Shown in pieces: positions 27,460-64,000 of a stretch of 64,000 nt of DNA. The notes below the pieces were generated by a model that made no database searches, was not told the DNA's origin, and saw nothing but the letters and a program-made list of their open reading frames with translations. Numbering within the stretch: the stretch's first letter is position 1; each line of letters starts with the position of its first letter. The position numbers and the translations under genes are program-made. The stretch lies in the NCBI RefSeq assembly GCF_988242995.1, contig NZ_OZ547043.1; one strand, written 5' to 3'.

Positions 27460-28875
27460 ATGACAGATCTTCCCGACAGCACCCGCTGGCAATTGTGGAT
27501 TGTGGCTTTCGGCTTCTTTATGCAGTCGCTGGACACCACCATCGTTAACACCGCGCTTCCCTCAATGGCGCAAAGCCTCGGGGAAAGTCCGTTGCATATG
27601 CACATGGTCATTGTCTCTTATGTACTGACCGTGGCGGTGATGTTGCCTGCCAGCGGCTGGCTGGCGGACAAAGTCGGCGTACGCAATATTTTCTTTACCG
27701 CCATCGTGCTGTTTACTCTCGGTTCACTGTTTTGCGCGCTTTCCGGCACGCTGAACGAACTGTTGCTGGCACGCGCGTTACAGGGCGTTGGCGGTGCGAT
27801 GATGGTGCCGGTCGGCAGATTGACGGTGATGAAAATCGTACCGCGCGAGCAATATATGGCGGCGATGACCTTTGTCACACTGCCCGGTCAGGTCGGTCCG
27901 CTGCTGGGTCCGGCGCTCGGCGGTCTGCTGGTGGAGTACGCATCGTGGCACTGGATCTTTTTGATCAACATTCCGGTGGGGATTATCGGTGCGATCGCAA
28001 CACTAATGTTGATGCCGAACTACACCATGCAGACGCGGCGCTTCGATCTCTCCGGCTTTTTATTGCTGGCGGTTGGTATGGCGGTATTAACCCTGGCGCT
28101 GGACGGCAGTAAAGGTACAGGTTTATCGCCGCTGGCGATTGCTGGCCTGGTCGCAGTTGGCGTGGTAGCACTGGTGCTTTATTTGCTGCACGCCAGAAAT
28201 AACAACCGCGCCCTGTTCAGTCTGAAACTGTTCCGCACTCGTACCTTTTCGCTGGGCCTGGCGGGGAGTTTTGCCGGACGTATCGGTAGCGGCATGTTGC
28301 CCTTTATGACGCCGGTTTTCCTGCAAATTGGCCTTGGCTTCTCACCGTTTCATGCCGGACTGATGATGATCCCGATGGTGCTTGGCAGCATGGGGATGAA
28401 GCGAATTGTTGTACAGGTGGTGAATCGCTTTGGTTATCGTCGGGTGCTGGTGGCGACCACGCTGGGTCTGTCGCTGGTCACCCTGTTGTTTATGACCACC
28501 GCGCTGCTGGGCTGGTACTACGTTTTACCGTTCGTCCTGTTTTTACAAGGAATGGTCAACTCAACGCGTTTCTCCTCCATGAACACCCTGACGCTGAAAG
28601 ATCTCCCGGACAATCTGGCGAGCAGCGGAAACAGCCTGCTGTCGATGATTATGCAATTGTCGATGAGTATCGGCGTCACCATCGCCGGGCTGTTGCTGGG
28701 GCTTTTTGGTTCGCAGCATGTCAGCGTCGACAGCGGCACCACACAAACCGTCTTTATGTACACCTGGCTTAGCATGGCGTTTATCATCGCCCTTCCGGCG
28801 TTCATCTTTGCCAGAGTGCCGAACGATACGCATCAAAATGTAGCTATTTCGCGGCGAAAAAGGAGCGCGCAATGA
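27460..28875 (+). CDS. mdtD: MFS transporter MdtD
   Basis: 471-aa ORF, highly hydrophobic, MFS-like; part of the mdtABCD-baeSR operon. Confidence 0.9.
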
Positions 28876-30275
28876 AGTTCTGGCGACCCGGTATTACCGG
28901 CAAACTGTTTCTGGCGATTTTCGCCACCTGCATTGTCTTGCTGATCAGTATGCACTGGGCGGTGCGTATCAGTTTTGAGCGTGGCTTTATTGATTACATC
29001 AAGCATGGTAATGAACAGCGATTACAACTGTTAAGTGATGCGCTTGGCGAGCAGTATGCGCAGCATGGCAACTGGCGCTTCCTGCGCAACAATGATCGCT
29101 TTGTCTTTCAGATCCTGCGTTCATTTGAACACGAAAATTCGGAAGATAAACCCGGCCCGGGTATGCCGCCGCACGGCTGGCGTACCCAGTTCTGGGTGGT
29201 TGATCAAAACAACAAAGTGCTGGTTGGTCCGCGAGCGCCGATTCCACCTGACGGTACACGGCGACCCATTCTGGTCAACGGTGCGGAAGTGGGTGCGGTG
29301 ATTGCCTCCCCTGTTGAGCGACTGACCCGCAATACTGATATCAATTTCGATAAACAACAGCGGCAAACCAGCTGGCTGATTGTCGCCCTGGCTACGTTAC
29401 TCGCGGCACTCGCCACCTTTCTGCTGGCGCGTGGTCTGTTGGCCCCGGTCAAACGGCTGGTGGACGGCACGCACAAACTGGCGGCGGGCGATTTCACTAC
29501 CCGCGTGACACCCACCAGTGAAGATGAACTGGGCAAACTGGCGCAAGACTTCAACCAGCTTGCCAGCACGCTGGAGAAAAACCAGCAAATGCGGCGCGAT
29601 TTTATGGCCGATATTTCTCACGAACTGCGTACGCCATTAGCGGTGCTGCGCGGTGAACTGGAAGCCATTCAGGATGGCGTGCGTAAATTCACGCCGGAGA
29701 CGGTGGCGTCTTTACAGGCGGAGGTCGGTACACTGACCAAACTGGTTGACGATCTCCATCAGTTGTCGATGTCTGATGAAGGCGCTCTCGCCTATCAAAA
29801 AGCACCGGTAGATTTGATCCCACTGCTGGAAGTAGCGGGCGGCGCATTTCGCGAACGATTCGCCAGCCGTGGCCTGAAACTGCAATTTTCCCTGCCAGAC
29901 AGTATTACCGTATTTGGCGATCGCGACCGTTTAATGCAGTTATTCAATAACTTACTGGAAAACAGCCTGCGCTACACTGACAGCGGCGGTAGCCTGAAAA
30001 TCTCTGCCGAGCAGCACGACAAAACGGTGCGACTGACCTTTGCCGACAGCGCGCCGGGCGTCAGTGACGATCAGCTACAAAAATTGTTTGAACGTTTTTA
30101 TCGCACCGAAGGTTCCCGCAACCGAGCCAGCGGCGGTTCCGGGCTGGGGCTGGCGATTTGCCTGAACATTGTTGAAGCACATAATGGTCGCATTATTGCT
30201 GCCCATTCGCCTTTTGGCGGGGTAAGCATTACAGTAGAGTTACCGCTGGAACGGGATTTACAGAGAGAAGTATGA
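28872..30275 (+). CDS. baeS: Envelope-stress sensor histidine kinase BaeS
   Basis: 467-aa ORF; HAMP region, H-box ([11 protein letters not shown]), C-terminal ATP-binding G-boxes. Confidence 0.9.
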
Positions 30276-30994
30276 CCGAGTTACCAATCGACGAGAACAC
30301 ACCGCGTATTTTGATCGTGGAAGATGAACCAAAGCTGGGGCAGTTGCTCATTGATTATCTGCGTGCTGCGAGCTATGCGCCGACGCTTATCAGCCACGGC
30401 GATCAGGTACTGCCGTATGTGCGCCAGACACCACCGGATCTGATCCTGCTGGATCTGATGCTCCCTGGCACCGATGGCCTGACGCTGTGCCGGGAAATTC
30501 GTCGTTTTTCTGACATTCCGATCGTGATGGTGACAGCAAAAATCGAAGAGATCGACCGCCTGCTGGGGCTGGAAATTGGCGCTGATGACTACATCTGCAA
30601 ACCGTACAGCCCACGGGAAGTGGTAGCGCGCGTCAAAACCATTTTGCGCCGTTGCAAACCGCAGCGTGAGTTGCAGCAACAGGATGCTGAAAGCCCGTTG
30701 ATTATCGACGAAGGTCGTTTTCAGGCTTCCTGGCGCGGAAAAATGCTTGACCTGACGCCTGCGGAATTTCGTCTGTTGAAAACGCTCTCTCATGAACCAG
30801 GAAAAGTGTTCTCCCGCGAGCAATTGCTCAATCATCTTTATGACGACTACCGCGTAGTAACCGACCGCACCATCGACAGCCACATTAAAAACCTGCGTCG
30901 CAAGCTGGAATCTCTCGACGCCGAACAGTCCTTTATCCGTGCCGTTTACGGCGTCGGTTACCGCTGGGAAGCCGACGCCTGCCGCATCGTTTAA
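30272..30994 (+). CDS. baeR: OmpR-family response regulator BaeR
   Basis: 240-aa ORF; receiver domain (ILIVEDEP...LDLMLPG) plus winged-helix output domain. Confidence 0.9.
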
Positions 30995-31173
30995 CATTTT
31001 TACCTGCCGGAGAAGGCATTCACGCCGCATCCGGCAACATTATCCCGCGCATGGTCAGCAAACTGACATTATCTCTCCGCCCTGGCAACCGCCTGAAAAT
31101 CGCTCATACTTTAATCGGTAAACAGTTCTTTTAGATGCTGTTTTCGATACGCAATTTCAATCAAGGAGTCATT

Positions 31174-31506
31174 ATGGCTGGTTGGTTTGAACTCAGTAAG
31201 AGCAGTGATAATCAGTTCCGGTTTGTGCTAAAAGCGGGCAATGGTGAGACTATCCTCACCAGCGAGCTATATACCTCAAAAGCCTCTGCGGAAAAGGGTA
31301 TCGCGTCGGTGCGTAGCAACAGCCCGCAAGAAGAACGCTATGAGAAAAAAACGGCAAGCAACGGCAAATTCTATTTCAATCTGAAAGCCGCCAATCATCA
31401 AATTATCGGCTCCAGCCAGATGTACGCCACCGCGCAATCTCGTGAAACCGGAATTGCCTCCGTTAAAGCCAATGGCACAAGCCAGACGGTGAAAGACAAT
31501 ACGTAA
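31174..31506 (+). CDS. yegP: UPF0339-family protein YegP (tandem DUF1508 repeats)
   Basis: ORF track 31135..31506; start at ATG 31174 with AAGGAG RBS (MAGWFELSKSS...), giving 110 aa with an internal two-fold repeat. Confidence 0.85.
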   Translation: MAGWFELSKSSDNQFRFVLKAGNGETILTSELYTSKASAEKGIASVRSNSPQEERYEKKTASNGKFYFNLKAANHQIIGSSQMYATAQSRETGIASVKANGTSQTVKDNT

Positions 31507-31653
31507 TTACGATGCCGGGCGTGGGTTGTTGGCGTCCGGCGCTTTACCAGCTCCCCCCTACAGCGCTACAATGCCCGCCCTTAAAGTGGGGGCACTCCCC
31601 TGGCCGCTTCATCAGGTGAAGCGGATCTGACCTGTCATCAGAACGAGAGAATT

Positions 31654-33015
31654 ATGTTTAAACCGGAACTCCTTTCCCCGGCGGGAACGCTGAAAAATAT
31701 GCGTTACGCTTTCGCTTATGGCGCAGATGCTGTTTATGCGGGCCAGCCGCGTTACTCCCTGCGTGTGCGCAACAACGAATTTAACCACGAAAATCTTCAG
31801 CTCGGCATCAATGAAGCCCACGCGCTGGGGAAAAAGTTTTATGTCGTGGTCAACATTGCACCGCACAACGCCAAGCTGAAAACCTTTATCCGTGACCTGA
31901 AACCGGTGGTGGAAATGGGGCCGGATGCGCTGATTATGTCTGATCCAGGGCTGATTATGCTGGTGCGCGAGCACTTCCCTGAAATGCCGATCCATCTCTC
32001 AGTACAGGCTAACGCCGTGAACTGGGCGACGGTGAAATTCTGGCAGCAAATGGGTCTGACCCGCGTGATCCTCTCTCGCGAACTGTCACTGGAAGAGATT
32101 GAAGAGATCCGCAATCAGGTGCCAGATATGGAGATCGAAATCTTCGTTCACGGCGCGCTGTGCATGGCCTACTCCGGTCGCTGCCTGCTCTCTGGCTATA
32201 TCAACAAGCGCGACCCGAACCAGGGCACCTGCACCAACGCCTGCCGCTGGGAGTACAACGTCCAGGAAGGGAAAGAAGATGACGTTGGCAACATCGTGCA
32301 CAAGTACGAGCCGATTCCGGTGCAAAATGTTGAGCCGACGCTGGGTATCGGCGCACCAACTGACAAAGTGTTTATGATCGAAGAAGCCCAGCGTCCGGGC
32401 GAGTATATGACCGCGTTTGAAGATGAGCACGGCACTTACATCATGAACTCGAAAGATCTGCGCGCTATCGCCCACGTTGAACGCCTGACCAAAATGGGCG
32501 TGCATTCGCTGAAAATCGAAGGCCGTACTAAATCTTTCTACTATTGCGCACGCACCGCACAGGTTTACCGTAAAGCTATCGATGACGCCGCTGCGGGCAA
32601 ACCGTTCGATACCAGCCTGCTGGAAACTCTGGAAGGTCTGGCGCATCGTGGCTATACCGAAGGTTTCCTGCGTCGTCATACTCACGACGATTATCAGAAC
32701 TACGAATACGGTTATTCAGTTTCTGACCGCCAGCAGTTTGTTGGTGAGTTTACCGGTGAGCGCAAGGGCGACCTCGCGGCGGTAGCGGTGAAAAATAAAT
32801 TCTCCGTTGGCGACAGCCTTGAGCTGATGACGCCGCAAGGCAACATTAATTTTACCCTTGAGCACATGGAAAACGCCAAAGGTGAAGCTATGCCGGTCGC
32901 ACCAGGCGATGGTTATACTGTGTGGATCCCGGTGCCGCAGGATCTTGAGCTAAATTACGCGCTGCTGATGCGTAATTTCTCCGGGGAAACCACGCGTAAC
33001 CCCCACGGTAAGTGA
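31654..33015 (+). CDS. yegQ: Peptidase U32-family protein YegQ (TrhP-type)
   Basis: 453-aa ORF beginning MFKPELLSPAGTLKNMRYAFAYGADAVYAG; Cys-rich U32 motif region. Confidence 0.9.
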   Translation: MFKPELLSPAGTLKNMRYAFAYGADAVYAGQPRYSLRVRNNEFNHENLQLGINEAHALGKKFYVVVNIAPHNAKLKTFIRDLKPVVEMGPDALIMSDPGLIMLVREHFPEMPIHLSVQANAVNWATVKFWQQMGLTRVILSRELSLEEIEEIRNQVPDMEIEIFVHGALCMAYSGRCLLSGYINKRDPNQGTCTNACRWEYNVQEGKEDDVGNIVHKYEPIPVQNVEPTLGIGAPTDKVFMIEEAQRPGEYMTAFEDEHGTYIMNSKDLRAIAHVERLTKMGVHSLKIEGRTKSFYYCARTAQVYRKAIDDAAAGKPFDTSLLETLEGLAHRGYTEGFLRRHTHDDYQNYEYGYSVSDRQQFVGEFTGERKGDLAAVAVKNKFSVGDSLELMTPQGNINFTLEHMENAKGEAMPVAPGDGYTVWIPVPQDLELNYALLMRNFSGETTRNPHGK

Positions 33016-33099: not shown

Positions 33100-33186
33100 G
33101 CTGAAAAACATAACCCATAAAATGCTAGCTGTACCAGGAACCACCTCCTTAGCCTGTGTAATCTCCCTTACACGGGCTTATTTTTT
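33100..33186 (+). ncRNA. cyaR: CyaR (RyeE) Hfq-dependent sRNA
   Basis: 87 nt recognised from memory as CyaR: GCTGAAAAACATAACCCATAAAATGCTAGCTGTACCAGGAACCACCTCCTTAGCCTGTGTAATCTCCCTTACACGGGCTTATTTTTT, ending in an intrinsic terminator. Confidence 0.85.
33160..33186. other. P2-type attachment-site core (27 bp) overlapping the cyaR 3' terminator
   Basis: AATCTCCCTTACACGGGCTTATTTTTT is the reverse complement of the P2 att core AAAAAATAAGCCCGTGTAAGGGAGATT as recalled; it abuts the ogr end of the prophage. Confidence 0.7.
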
Positions 33187-57215: not shown

Positions 57216-57384
57216 ACATCGCCGCCTGCGGGCGGCTTTTTTACATCCCGTCATCACGCCCTCACACGCTCACCACCGCACAAAACACCCCTTAGACACA
57301 CCAACGCCCCGACGCACAATCTAAACGCCATCACGACGCGCTCAGACGCTGAAAAAATAAAATCAGCACCACCGCCAGCGCGCA

Positions 57385-57554: not shown

Positions 57555-59387
57555 TCAAACAGAGCCCTGTTCAAAAACAGTATCAAAATATGGTAGGAGA
57601 GGATAAGCACACAGAAAGAAAATCAGGATGCATGCATATGTCGTTGTTTCATCGTAACAAGCATTAGTATATAAATTACCATGTGCTAATTTATGTCTTA
57701 AGGTTGCCCCACTCTTTCTGTTAAAAAGAACATCGATAGTCAAAACAAGATTTTTAGAAAAGATACTTTCCAAATCATCTCTGCATTTATCTAGAAGCTG
57801 AGAAATACTTGTTGACTCCTCTAATCCCTTATCCAAATATCTAGTAGCATCCTTTCCACTAAGCTCATAATAATAACGAACCATACCTTCCATTTGTGGT
57901 ATTAAAAGATAAGCTGCACTGATGTAATCTCCCTGCCATAATTTGTAAAAGCCCAAATTAAAAATCTCCCTAAACTCCGGCTTGACAATTGGACTAGTTG
58001 TAACCAATTTAACGAATGTTGACAACGTCAAGCCATGTTCTTGAGAAAGTACATAGCGAGCAGGTTCAAAGACACCGTTTACAAAAATCTTATGAGTAAT
58101 CTCGAAATTTCTTAGATATTGATCAATAACAACATCATCACTCATATCTTTTTTATTATCCAACGGCGGGATTGTATATATCTTACGCCCACTCTCATCA
58201 TTAATTTCTGTTCCAACAAAACTAGAGAATAAACTTTTTTCTGATAATCTTAAAACTTGTTCCCTCATGCTTTCAATATTTTCAATCGGTGTTTCACTCA
58301 TTAAAACTTTGAATATATCGGGCAAAGAACGCCCCGTCAGTTTTTTTTCACTTTCAGCAACCAAGTCACTAATATCAATAGAATGGCTTAAAGTGACATA
58401 TTCACTCCTTACTTCTTCTCTCAAATTAGCAAGTTGTTCCTTTAAATCTTCTATCTGTTGGCTATCACCACCGTACTGTCTTAATTCAGAGATAGCTGTT
58501 CTTAACCAAGAGATCTTACCCATATTATCAGGTCGTTCTGTTGCAACTTTAATAGTAATATTTGCAGATGCCAGTTTACATCTCTTGGCACGTTCATACT
58601 CACCATTTTTTTCATAAATAACTGCACTTGTCATATAAAGTGATTTTACAGCATCATAATATTTTTTATCTTTATGCTGCTCAGCCATCTTCTCAGCATT
58701 TTCCGCATACTGCAGATTATACCCATCAAAATCACGCACCATAAACCAAGTCAAATTATTGAAACCTTCAAAGATTAATCTTTCATTTTGAATACTATAA
58801 AGAGAATGAATGGCATTTTTAATCGCCATGTTTCCTTCTGATTTTCTAGGGTAGACCATTTTATTAATGTGCAAAGCCCTAGCAATATAATCACGAGCAA
58901 AAATAAAGCAATTTAAATCACTTTCATCCATGCTTTCGTTTTTTATTATTAGCTTTTCAATTGCTATATTTAGCATTTCAGCATAGGAATCAATTGCTTT
59001 AATTGCCACGTCTTTATTTTTCCGATTATTACACCAAACAACATCATATATTCTTGATAACAAAAATGGATTGGTTATTTTTTGAGAAACATATAAAAGA
59101 CAGTCATTCACCTGCTCATCAAAATCTTCAGGCAATATTGATCTTTTATTACCCCAAATCATTTGGGGTTCAAATGCTGGAGTGTTGTTAACAACTTGCA
59201 AATTGAAACTATATAGCATACCAAAAAGAGATGCTAATTTTTTCTCTTTGGGGTTTTCTGATGACTCAGCAATCCCATCCAGATATTTTTTTATTTTATG
59301 TGCATGAAATGTAACTGGTATATACATAAAAACACTATAATCTAGTGTTTCAAGCTCTTCCCTTGTAAGAACAAAGATATCATTCAT
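57555..59387 (-). CDS. Hotspot cargo: large AT-rich protein of unknown family with C-terminal HEPN-like Rx4H motif; candidate anti-phage effector
   Basis: ORF track 57555..59492; likely start ATG 59387 with AAGGTGA RBS (MNDIFVLTREELETLDY...), giving 610 aa. Occupies the position of P2 tin/old; codon usage visibly AT-rich; no Walker A, TOPRIM or RT motif seen; LRHKLAHG near the C-terminus. Confidence 0.6.
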   Translation of the reverse strand: MNDIFVLTREELETLDYSVFMYIPVTFHAHKIKKYLDGIAESSENPKEKKLASLFGMLYSFNLQVVNNTPAFEPQMIWGNKRSILPEDFDEQVNDCLLYVSQKITNPFLLSRIYDVVWCNNRKNKDVAIKAIDSYAEMLNIAIEKLIIKNESMDESDLNCFIFARDYIARALHINKMVYPRKSEGNMAIKNAIHSLYSIQNERLIFEGFNNLTWFMVRDFDGYNLQYAENAEKMAEQHKDKKYYDAVKSLYMTSAVIYEKNGEYERAKRCKLASANITIKVATERPDNMGKISWLRTAISELRQYGGDSQQIEDLKEQLANLREEVRSEYVTLSHSIDISDLVAESEKKLTGRSLPDIFKVLMSETPIENIESMREQVLRLSEKSLFSSFVGTEINDESGRKIYTIPPLDNKKDMSDDVVIDQYLRNFEITHKIFVNGVFEPARYVLSQEHGLTLSTFVKLVTTSPIVKPEFREIFNLGFYKLWQGDYISAAYLLIPQMEGMVRYYYELSGKDATRYLDKGLEESTSISQLLDKCRDDLESIFSKNLVLTIDVLFNRKSGATLRHKLAHGNLYTNACYDETTTYACILIFFLCAYPLLPYFDTVFEQGSV

Positions 59388-59506
59388 CGTTTTCACCTTT
59401 TTCAGTATAAATTTGCACGCATTATTATTAGCAACATAATCATCAATAGTTAACACATGCAGATAGACAGCAATTTTACTATTATGCAACAAATTAAATC
59501 AGATGT

Positions 59507-62277: not shown

Positions 62278-62580
62278 TCAGCTCCTTTTATCGTTAAGTT
62301 TCCTGGATACATCAACGCAATAACTGGCAAGTTCTGTCGTTAATTTTGTTAGTTCATCCACTGAGGAAATTTGCTTGTGGAATACAGCGCGTTTAACAAG
62401 TAAATTGACCACATCAGACAGGAGGTTTAATTCATTCTGATAAATCGCGATAACAGATTCAGTTATGTCGCGTTTTTCTTTATCAAGACAAAGTTGAATA
62501 AGAGACAAATCGCCATTTTTCATAACGGCGATTTTTAAGGCGTTATTCAGTAATACAACTGAACGAGAACAGGACATCAA
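62278..62580 (-). CDS. P2 orf81-like hypothetical protein
   Basis: 100-aa ORF in the early operon. Confidence 0.6.
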
Positions 62581-62834
62581 AGCACCTCCCCGCGAGACAA
62601 TCCGATATTGTGAAATTTTTCCGACTCCTGACTGAGCAGCTCGACTATCTCCACGCGGGATAACTCCGCCTTTGTGATGTGGCGAATCATGGCGTCAAGA
62701 TGAGAAGAAAAGCGGGTCGCAGCGTCGGCCTGTGCTTCGGTTCTGGCCTGTTGCAGCAGTAATGCGTATATACCGCACTGATTTTCAGAAACTGTATGCA
62801 TGACTTTCTCCAGGCAAAAAGAAGCCCCGCACAA
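62577..62834 (-). CDS. P2 orf80-like hypothetical protein
   Basis: 85-aa ORF in the early operon. Confidence 0.6.
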
Positions 62835-62864
62835 TTAAGTGCGTTAAAAACTCTGGTTAATTAC

Positions 62865-63365
62865 TTAATGCAGATATTGCTCTGGTTTTACCGACGTCAG
62901 AATTGTCGGTGCATACTCAAACAGACTGAATAATTCACGTAATGCACGGAATAAAGCATCACGCCAGTAACATGATTCTTCATTAATTCGCCAGTATGGC
63001 TGGTTAAATTCTTTTTCTGTCAGTCGTGCGTGCATAAATAAAGTGCGACGCTGACTGACTGTTAAAAAACTAATATATGCATACTCACTTGCGCCAACCT
63101 GACGGCGTTTTGAGAATGCCCCACGCAATTCATCAATTGCACATACCAGTCGTTCACGTTCGACATCATTCATTTCTTCAAAACGCATCGTTGCGTGACG
63201 CTGTTTTAACTGAGCATGGAAGCAAACCGTTAGCCGTTCGCGTTCCATCATCTGATTATAATAATCACATGTCTCCTGCCAGCGAGGGACGGCAAGATGC
63301 TTACCAATTATCCGGCGCATAGTTGCTGGCTGTTTTTCAACGAGATTGAGCGTCATCACTGTCAT
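62865..63365 (-). CDS. B: Replication protein gpB (helicase-loader-like)
   Basis: 166-aa ORF in the conserved position. Confidence 0.8.
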   Translation of the reverse strand: MTVMTLNLVEKQPATMRRIIGKHLAVPRWQETCDYYNQMMERERLTVCFHAQLKQRHATMRFEEMNDVERERLVCAIDELRGAFSKRRQVGASEYAYISFLTVSQRRTLFMHARLTEKEFNQPYWRINEESCYWRDALFRALRELFSLFEYAPTILTSVKPEQYLH

Positions 63366-63556
63366 TTCCAGACCCTCCGGCTTTTCAGAAAGGTCAGAGC
63401 CTTTTTTAACGGACTCTGTTTTTTGGTGCGGATAATGATTCCCTTACGCCCCTTACCGTGGGTGATGGTGAAGTCAATCGCCCTGGGGCTTTCGTTACGC
63501 AGTAACTGAGCAATACAACGAGGCTCATTCATACGGTTCTCCTTAACGTGGTTCAC
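63362..63556 (-). CDS. P2 orf78-like small protein
   Basis: 64-aa ORF between cox and B. Confidence 0.6.
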   Translation of the reverse strand: MNHVKENRMNEPRCIAQLLRNESPRAIDFTITHGKGRKGIIIRTKKQSPLKKALTFLKSRRVWK

Positions 63557-63818
63557 CGAGACCTAACCACATCAACCAGCCGTCACGAATCTCTTTAGGA
63601 CGGCTTTCATAAGCCAGTTTTAGTCCGTTATTCCATGCCGGAAGGTATACCCAATATTCACCTGCACGACCTGAAGCTGATTGTGGATCGGTCATATCAA
63701 TTACTGGCAGCTTTCCTTTATCGATCATCCGACGAACCGCTCCTGTCGATTTTCCTATTAGTTTTGCGAACTCCTGATAAGGAATCGCATCAGTCATGAG
63801 TGTTACTTGCTTGCTCAT
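63543..63818 (-). CDS. cox: Cox (excision directionality factor / repressor of Pc)
   Basis: 91-aa ORF MSKQVTLMTDAIPYQEFAKLIGKSTGAVRRMIDKGKLPV... recognised as P2 Cox. Confidence 0.9.
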   Translation of the reverse strand: MSKQVTLMTDAIPYQEFAKLIGKSTGAVRRMIDKGKLPVIDMTDPQSASGRAGEYWVYLPAWNNGLKLAYESRPKEIRDGWLMWLGLGEPR

Positions 63819-63899
63819 GTCGTCCTCCAGCCCTCATGAATTGCGTTTAATGCCTTATAATGCCTTTTAGTGCCCACATCCAAGCACTAAACAATCTAC

Positions 63900-63929
63900 A
63901 TCTAAACTAAATACTATTGAGATCTAAAC
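63900..63929 (+). promoter_or_regulatory. Immunity operator: two ATCTAAAC direct repeats 22 bp apart in the Pe/Pc switch region
   Basis: ATCTAAAC at 63900-63907 and 63922-63929, directly upstream of the C start; P2 repressor C binds direct repeats spaced about two helical turns apart. Confidence 0.55.
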
Positions 63930-63932
63930 ACC

Positions 63933-64000
63933 ATGTCAAACACGATAAGCGAGAAGATAGTCTTAATGCGAAAATCAGAGTATTTGAGCAGACAACAACT
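63933..64000 (+). CDS. C: Immunity repressor C, 5' fragment (continues past window end)
   Basis: ATG at 63933 followed by MSNTISEKIVLMRKSEYLSRQQ, matching the P2 C N-terminus; truncated by the window. Confidence 0.8.
   Translation, partial: MSNTISEKIVLMRKSEYLSRQQ

Follow-up and report, generated by a model that had tools for sequence, protein, structure and literature searches.

The spacer between the genes cox and C (63819-63932, 114 bp) is, as judged from its bases, the known lysis/lysogeny switch of bacteriophage P2, here part of a prophage that sits in a chromosome of the E. coli type. The window, i.e. the whole stretch of 64,000 nucleotides that was analysed, ends within the C gene. The switch, its repeats and its sites are already known and nothing in them is new. 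The value of the result is one of annotation: by this assignment, the prophage carries switch DNA of P2's own immunity class.

Identity with the P2 switch

The segment 63400-64000 of the window is identical to P2 (AF063097 / NC_001895) at 597 of 601 bases, with no insertions or deletions. The features annotated in AF063097 were transferred to the window by adding 61899 to the locus coordinate. The operators O1 and O2 and the hexamers of the early promoter Pe and of the repressor promoter Pc all map onto the window without indels.

The four bases that differ from the reference P2 are at 63600, 63705, 63828 and 63853, and two of them lie inside the 114-bp spacer. The first two fall in cox and are synonymous. 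Position 63828 is C here and T in P2, so that the Shine-Dalgarno sequence of cox reads GGAGGA instead of AGAGGA and is longer here. Position 63853, also C here and T in P2, is placed 3 nt upstream of the Pc -10 hexamer, at position -15 in the Pc spacer, and corresponds to the N position of the second Cox box described below. A published P2 primer ending in ...TTTAATGTC agrees with the P2 reading of this site, AATGTCTT (PMC1904263). The four differences from P2 are natural variants.

Genes flanking the switch and prophage context

The spacer was delimited from the list of open reading frames and from the sequence. On its left side is cox (63543-63818, minus strand), a 91-aa ORF that is, according to the P2 GenBank annotation, the first gene of the early (lytic) operon. 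In the protein comparison, all the 91 residues are those of P2 Cox (100%). The protein is both the repressor of Pc and the excision directionality factor. The hexamer GGAGGA at 63823-63828 (minus strand), 4 nt before the ATG, is seen in the sequence and in the P2 alignment and is, from its position, the putative ribosome-binding site (Shine-Dalgarno) of cox.

On the right side is the 5' end of C, the gene of the immunity repressor (63933-64000, plus strand). Its start codon is at 63933, and the window contains the first 22 of the 99 codons (translation MSNTISEKIVLMRKSEYLSRQQ), with the remaining 77 beyond base 64000. All the 68 nt of C within the window are the same as in the DNA of P2, and the 22 codons are thus identical. 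The earlier note had described cox and C as divergent. This holds for the genes; the picture is refined for their promoters, which are placed face to face, with Pe abutting the start of C and reaching partly into it, and with Pc adjoining cox.

From the position of the attP core, the prophage has its left end at about 33159 and its right end past the end of the window. The P2 attP core is found at 33159-33186 with 27 of 28 bases matching (one mismatch), directly downstream of baeS, baeR and trhP (yegQ), which occupy 28872-33015. In a genome with an identical switch, int is followed by yegR. The yegQ-yegR site is presumably the classical P2 site, the one at which K-12 carries the ogrK remnant.

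Most of the DNA between about 33.2 kb and 64 kb belongs to one P2-like prophage, in the order ogr-D...Q-cos-cargo-A-B-cox-C. In P2, the slot between gene A and cos is the one in which tin and old sit. Here, the cargo slot between the replication gene A and cos contains a 645-aa ORF (57555-59492, minus strand). The ORF matches the Pfam family DUF7380 (E 3.8e-38) and the PADLOC candidate defence family PDC-S39 (E 2.9e-84), and also gives a weak match to DUF4209, a family treated in an analysis of the HEPN superfamily (PMC3710099). By its sequence matches, it is probably an anti-phage cargo gene.

The repressor promoter Pc and the Cox boxes

Next to cox, the earlier note had pointed to AATGCCTT, present twice and 10 bp apart, as a possible site for Cox or for another regulator. 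The exact search places the two copies at 63849-63856 and 63859-63866, 10 bp from start to start, and a script shows that the tandem is in fact of the 9-mer TAATGCCTT, at 63848-63856 and 63858-63866. The tandem is perfect only here, owing to the C at 63853; the reference P2 has AATGTCTT in the first copy. The repeat overlaps the promoter Pc. The Pc -10 hexamer, TATAAT, is at 63856-63861 (plus strand), as given by the P2 annotation and by the sequence. The -35 hexamer, ATGAAT, was transferred from AF063097 to 63836-63841 (plus strand), where the bases are the same as in P2. The annotated spacing between the two hexamers is only 14 nt, and because of it the exact assignment of the -35 is weak.

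The consensus of the Cox box is TTAAA(G/C)NC(A/C), with starts 10-11 bp apart and at least six boxes per site (PMC3936717). The consensus scan of the spacer yields three boxes on the minus strand, each matching at least 7 of the 9 positions. Box 1 (63842-63850, TTAAACGCA) matches at 9/9. Box 2 (63851-63859, TATAAGGCA) matches at 7/9 and box 3 (63861-63869, TAAAAGGCA) at 8/9. Read as reverse complements, the cores of boxes 2 and 3 give the first and the second AATGCCTT copy, respectively. The starts of the boxes (63842, 63851 and 63861) are 9 and 10 bp apart, and overlapping matches of 7/9 are present on the opposite strand at 63846-63855 and 63867-63875. Together, the three boxes (63842-63869) overlap the annotated Pc region, from the -35 to the -10. 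The suspicion that Cox is involved was right: the repeats fit the Cox-box consensus, and we read the AATGCCTT tandem, on this fit, as the cores of two of the three phased Cox boxes over Pc.

In P2, the stretch protected by Cox measures at least 70 bp. At Pc, both the -35 and the -10 are overlapped by boxes and the Cox filament blocks the promoter; at higher concentration, Cox spreads toward Pe (PMC3936717). Since the DNA of the boxes is the same as in P2, save for the SNP at an N position, what holds for the P2 array holds here.

It is very unlikely that the tandem is instead a by-product of Pc, made of TATAAT and its flanks, or the site of another factor, such as C itself in an extended form of binding at high concentration. 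Such a reading would draw on the overlap of the tandem with the Pc -10 and on the imperfect first copy of the reference P2, which means that the 8-mer repeat, in its exact form, is not conserved. It would also draw on phased triples of Cox-box matches of at least 7/9, which are seen at four more sites across the 64 kb. These triples arise by chance, and for this reason enrichment was left out as evidence. Against it, DNase footprints locate Cox over both the -35 and the -10 of Pc, with boxes at a spacing of 10-11 bp (PMC3936717), and the boxes found here reach the scores given above. Moreover, the C/T polymorphism is at the N of the consensus, where variation would be expected if it is the Cox-box positions that are constrained. 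Finally, in a P2 Hy dis-like relative, whose cox gene is 91% identical, the corresponding position is taken by a comparable tandem with 10-bp phasing, GCTTCTAATG / GCTCCTAATG.

The early promoter Pe and the C operators

Two copies of ATCTAAAC, at 63900-63907 and 63922-63929, are recovered by the exact search at the places and with the distance that the earlier note had reported (22 bp from start to start). One further copy is present in the 64 kb, at 57319. On the early (minus) strand, each copy reads GTTTAGAT. The first one coincides exactly with the "O2 repressor binding site" of AF063097, and the second one with its "O1 repressor binding site", each being a half-site for the C repressor. 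The promoter Pe is found around them on the minus strand. Its -10 hexamer, TAGTAT, taken from the P2 annotation, is at 63911-63916 and is flanked by O2 and O1. Its -35 hexamer, TTGACA, given by the P2 annotation and by the promoter scan, is at 63934-63939 and overlaps codons 1-3 of C. An independent consensus scan recovers Pe as TTGACA-17-TAGTAT, with 10 of 12 matches.

The P2 C repressor recognizes two direct 8-bp repeats, 22 bp apart from centre to centre, which flank the Pe -10 (PMC1904268, PMC2995052). The O1 half-site of P2 is given as GTTTAGAT, the reverse complement of ATCTAAAC, and its change to ATCCGAGT abolishes repression in vivo as well as binding in vitro (PMC1904263). According to the same work, P2 C does not bind to a single half-site, both being needed, and the operator is bent; the presumed start of Pe is backed by primer extension, and a weak Pc transcript was detected (PMC1904263).

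The ATCTAAAC pair is the P2 operator because it coincides with both O2 and O1 of AF063097 and with the published half-site, base for base, as had been supposed from the fit of the repeats to operators of the P2 C type. The earlier note had also held that the operator would indicate the immunity group. The group can indeed be named, and it is that of P2. The two GTTTAGAT half-sites, the distance of 22 bp and the Pe -10 between them are all seen in the window, and on these features the switch DNA is assigned to P2's own immunity class. The published criterion of an immunity group is a cognate C protein at least 95% identical, for this class to P2 C (PMC3448106).

Conservation of the switch and of its repressor

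Among E. coli genomes, the P2 switch is common and varies very little. Among 5426 complete E. coli genomes, 404 (~7%) carry the 115-bp spacer at an identity of at least 95%. The 40-mer at 63853 is present with the C allele in 191 of the 5426 genomes and with the T allele in 212, and both alleles together account for 403 of the 404 genomes that bear the switch; the dimorphism is a common natural one. The exact 52-mer with both spacer SNPs of the window (63828 and 63853) is found in 117 genomes. The 40-mer 63893-63932 is matched in 362 genomes, in 345 of them at 99% or more over at least 95% of its length and in 17 with one mismatch.

The switch was also aligned in six sequences: those of the window and of P2, that of a genome whose spacer is identical, and those of three genomes from among the most divergent matches. 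O1, O2 and all the promoter hexamers are invariant in this alignment, and the variants are located at 63828, 63853, 63899, 63910 and 63932. On the other side of the comparison proposed in the earlier note, the ATCTAAAC pair is absent from the switch of both heteroimmune relatives that were fetched (vB_EcoM-569R9 and vB_EcoM-720R8). The switch of vB_EcoM-569R9 contains CCTATATAGG twice, 34 bp apart, and in the spacer of vB_EcoM-720R8 no operator-like repeat pair was found. The repeats are thus conserved among the aligned switches of P2 immunity and missing in the two relatives, a pattern that fits repeats by which immunity specificity is defined. The outcome favours the earlier note, against which a lack of conservation in related phages would have spoken.

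In the phage collection, the match of most P2-like phages to the window stops at about 63533-63546, the 3' end of cox. From these alignments, we take 63533-63546 as the left boundary of an exchangeable cox-C immunity cassette. These phages, peduoviruses of Yersinia, Salmonella and E. coli, keep an identity of 97-98% through orf78, and their similarity breaks off exactly at this boundary.

A fragment of E. coli CM2 (NZ_CP114891.1, 1480-1560) was considered as a natural recombinant and rejected, as it is an engineered construct. In this record, deposited as a complete genome, the short piece of P2 comprises O2, the Pe -10, O1 and the beginning of C. It is bordered on one side by a polylinker and an rrnB-terminator-like sequence and on the other by a bla-promoter-like sequence.

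A C gene that is recombinant or broken beyond the window would leave the operators orphan, and the prophage would then have P2 operators with another immunity type, or be immunity-defective. The window does end at codon 22 of C, the regulatory regions of P2-like phages are mosaic, with most relatives losing similarity at the 3' end of cox, and a 20-kb segment of the prophage has no match of at least 99% among the complete E. coli genomes. Nevertheless, this is highly improbable. In every natural genome with the switch that was sampled, the C gene downstream encodes WP_001306384.1, 100% identical to P2 C: the translated C of strain 504838 is identical to it at 99 of 99 residues, and in three other sampled genomes C is annotated under this same accession. 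Chimeric regulatory regions were not found in the published analysis, as operators and repressor are co-adapted (PMC3448106), and the part of C that lies in the window is that of P2 at 68 of 68 nt. Because the end of the window cuts the gene, we infer, rather than read directly, that the prophage expresses an intact C.

The repeats by themselves are only suggestive. One exact short-range 8-mer repeat is found in 5% of the shuffles of the spacer and in 8% of the sliding 114-bp windows over the 64 kb, whereas two independent such repeats are found in 0.1-0.3%. The counts of ATCTAAAC and AATGCCTT over the whole window are not significantly above those of shuffles, and a generic repeat finder applied to the region reported neither 8-mer pair; the coordinates of the repeats come from direct pattern searches and from the script. 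Consequently, the functional case rests on the identity to experimentally mapped P2 sites and not on statistics. That ATCTAAAC recurs here by chance, in a promoter region rich in AT, and that C binds elsewhere is extremely unlikely in spite of the 5-8% of comparable 114-bp stretches with one such repeat, given that the pair is the same as the mutationally and biochemically defined P2 half-sites, of which O1 loses binding and repression by the change cited above (PMC1904263).

The inverted repeat and the spacer variants

A perfect 8-bp inverted repeat, TTTAGTGC / GCACTAAA, was located by the repeat finder at 63866-63873 and 63884-63891, with a 10-nt spacer. It is placed between the Pc -10 and O2, within the predicted overlap of the transcripts from Pe and Pc, and the alignment shows it to be the same in P2. 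The corresponding RNA folds with -7.6 kcal/mol on the plus strand and with -11.0 kcal/mol on the minus strand, which is the leader of the early mRNA (z about -4). Taken together with its flank, the right arm (CACTAAAC, 63885-63892) agrees with the operator half-site at 6 of 8 bases. When 62500-64000 was scanned with Rfam, nothing meaningful came up, the only hit being SraB with 18.7 bits against a gathering score of 130.

To our knowledge, no function is known for the inverted repeat (63866-63891), nor for the SNPs at 63853 and 63828. It is conceivable, though rather doubtful, that these variants, the inverted repeat, or both, tune the set-point of the switch. If so, the variants at 63853 and 63828 might shift the balance between Pc and Pe and, hence, the frequency of spontaneous induction among prophages of P2 immunity. 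In the same event, the inverted repeat might be a stabilising hairpin at the 5' end or a determinant of transcriptional or antisense interference.

Working of the switch

The region is almost certainly a bistable switch of transcription in a prophage of P2 immunity, and it should work as in P2; the data contain nothing that speaks against this. The identity of the sequence and the positions of the sites relative to the P2 annotation were computed here, whereas what is said on binding, cooperativity, bending and repression comes from the P2 papers.

The strong promoter Pe (63939-63911, minus strand) would drive cox, orf78, B and A leftwards, and the weak promoter Pc (plus strand, -10 at 63856-63861) would drive C and int rightwards. 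From the positions of the -10 hexamers, the transcripts are expected to start near 63904 (Pe) and 63868 (Pc) and to overlap by some 35-40 nt, or about 37 nt when counted between these two starts. In the lysogen, dimers of the 99-aa C would occupy O1 and O2 cooperatively, two helical turns apart, around the Pe -10. The repressor would then bend the DNA and shut off Pe, which would leave the prophage silent and bring about immunity to phages with the same operators. In lytic growth, Cox would polymerise on the phased boxes (63842-63869, minus strand) and on weaker flanking sites. It would cover the -35 and the -10 of Pc, and the synthesis of C and Int would be turned off.

The prophage is predicted to confer immunity to P2. 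As a lysogen of the P2 class, it would have no immunity to P2 Hy dis, to WPhi or to phages of the 186 type, would not be inducible by the SOS response and would be derepressed by the satellite P4.

Comparison with known switches

In the pR-pL switch of phage 186, too, the lytic and lysogenic promoters are face to face and lie between divergent genes, and the Apl protein is a recombination directionality factor (RDF) that binds helically phased direct repeats between the promoters (PMC7498355). The 186 system differs in its repressor CI, which is unrelated and larger, in the logic of its operators and in having an establishment promoter dependent on CII (PMC1904263). A switch of the 186 type (CI / Apl) was considered for the present region and rejected: the gene that starts at 63933 encodes the N-terminus of P2 C and not CI.

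WPhi is closer in design, with a C-type repressor that acts on direct repeats flanking the Pe -10 and with Pe and Pc face to face (PMC1904263, PMC1904268). On the other hand, its half-sites have 10 bp and are 34 bp apart, and its C protein, 43% identical, binds to a single half-site (PMC1904263, PMC1904268).

The P2 Hy dis-type switch, represented by vB_EcoM-720R8, likewise has divergent genes for Cox and a 99-aa C, a spacer of ~120 bp and a 10-bp-phased tandem beside cox. Its C is 65% identical to P2 C, and its operators are formed by 8-bp direct-repeat half-sites (PMC1904268). The operator itself differs and is without ATCTAAAC, and the type is heteroimmune to P2.

The Pe-Pc switch of P2 (AF063097) has the same O1 and O2, the same -35 and -10 hexamers of Pe and of Pc, the same Cox and the same first 22 codons of C as the region described here.
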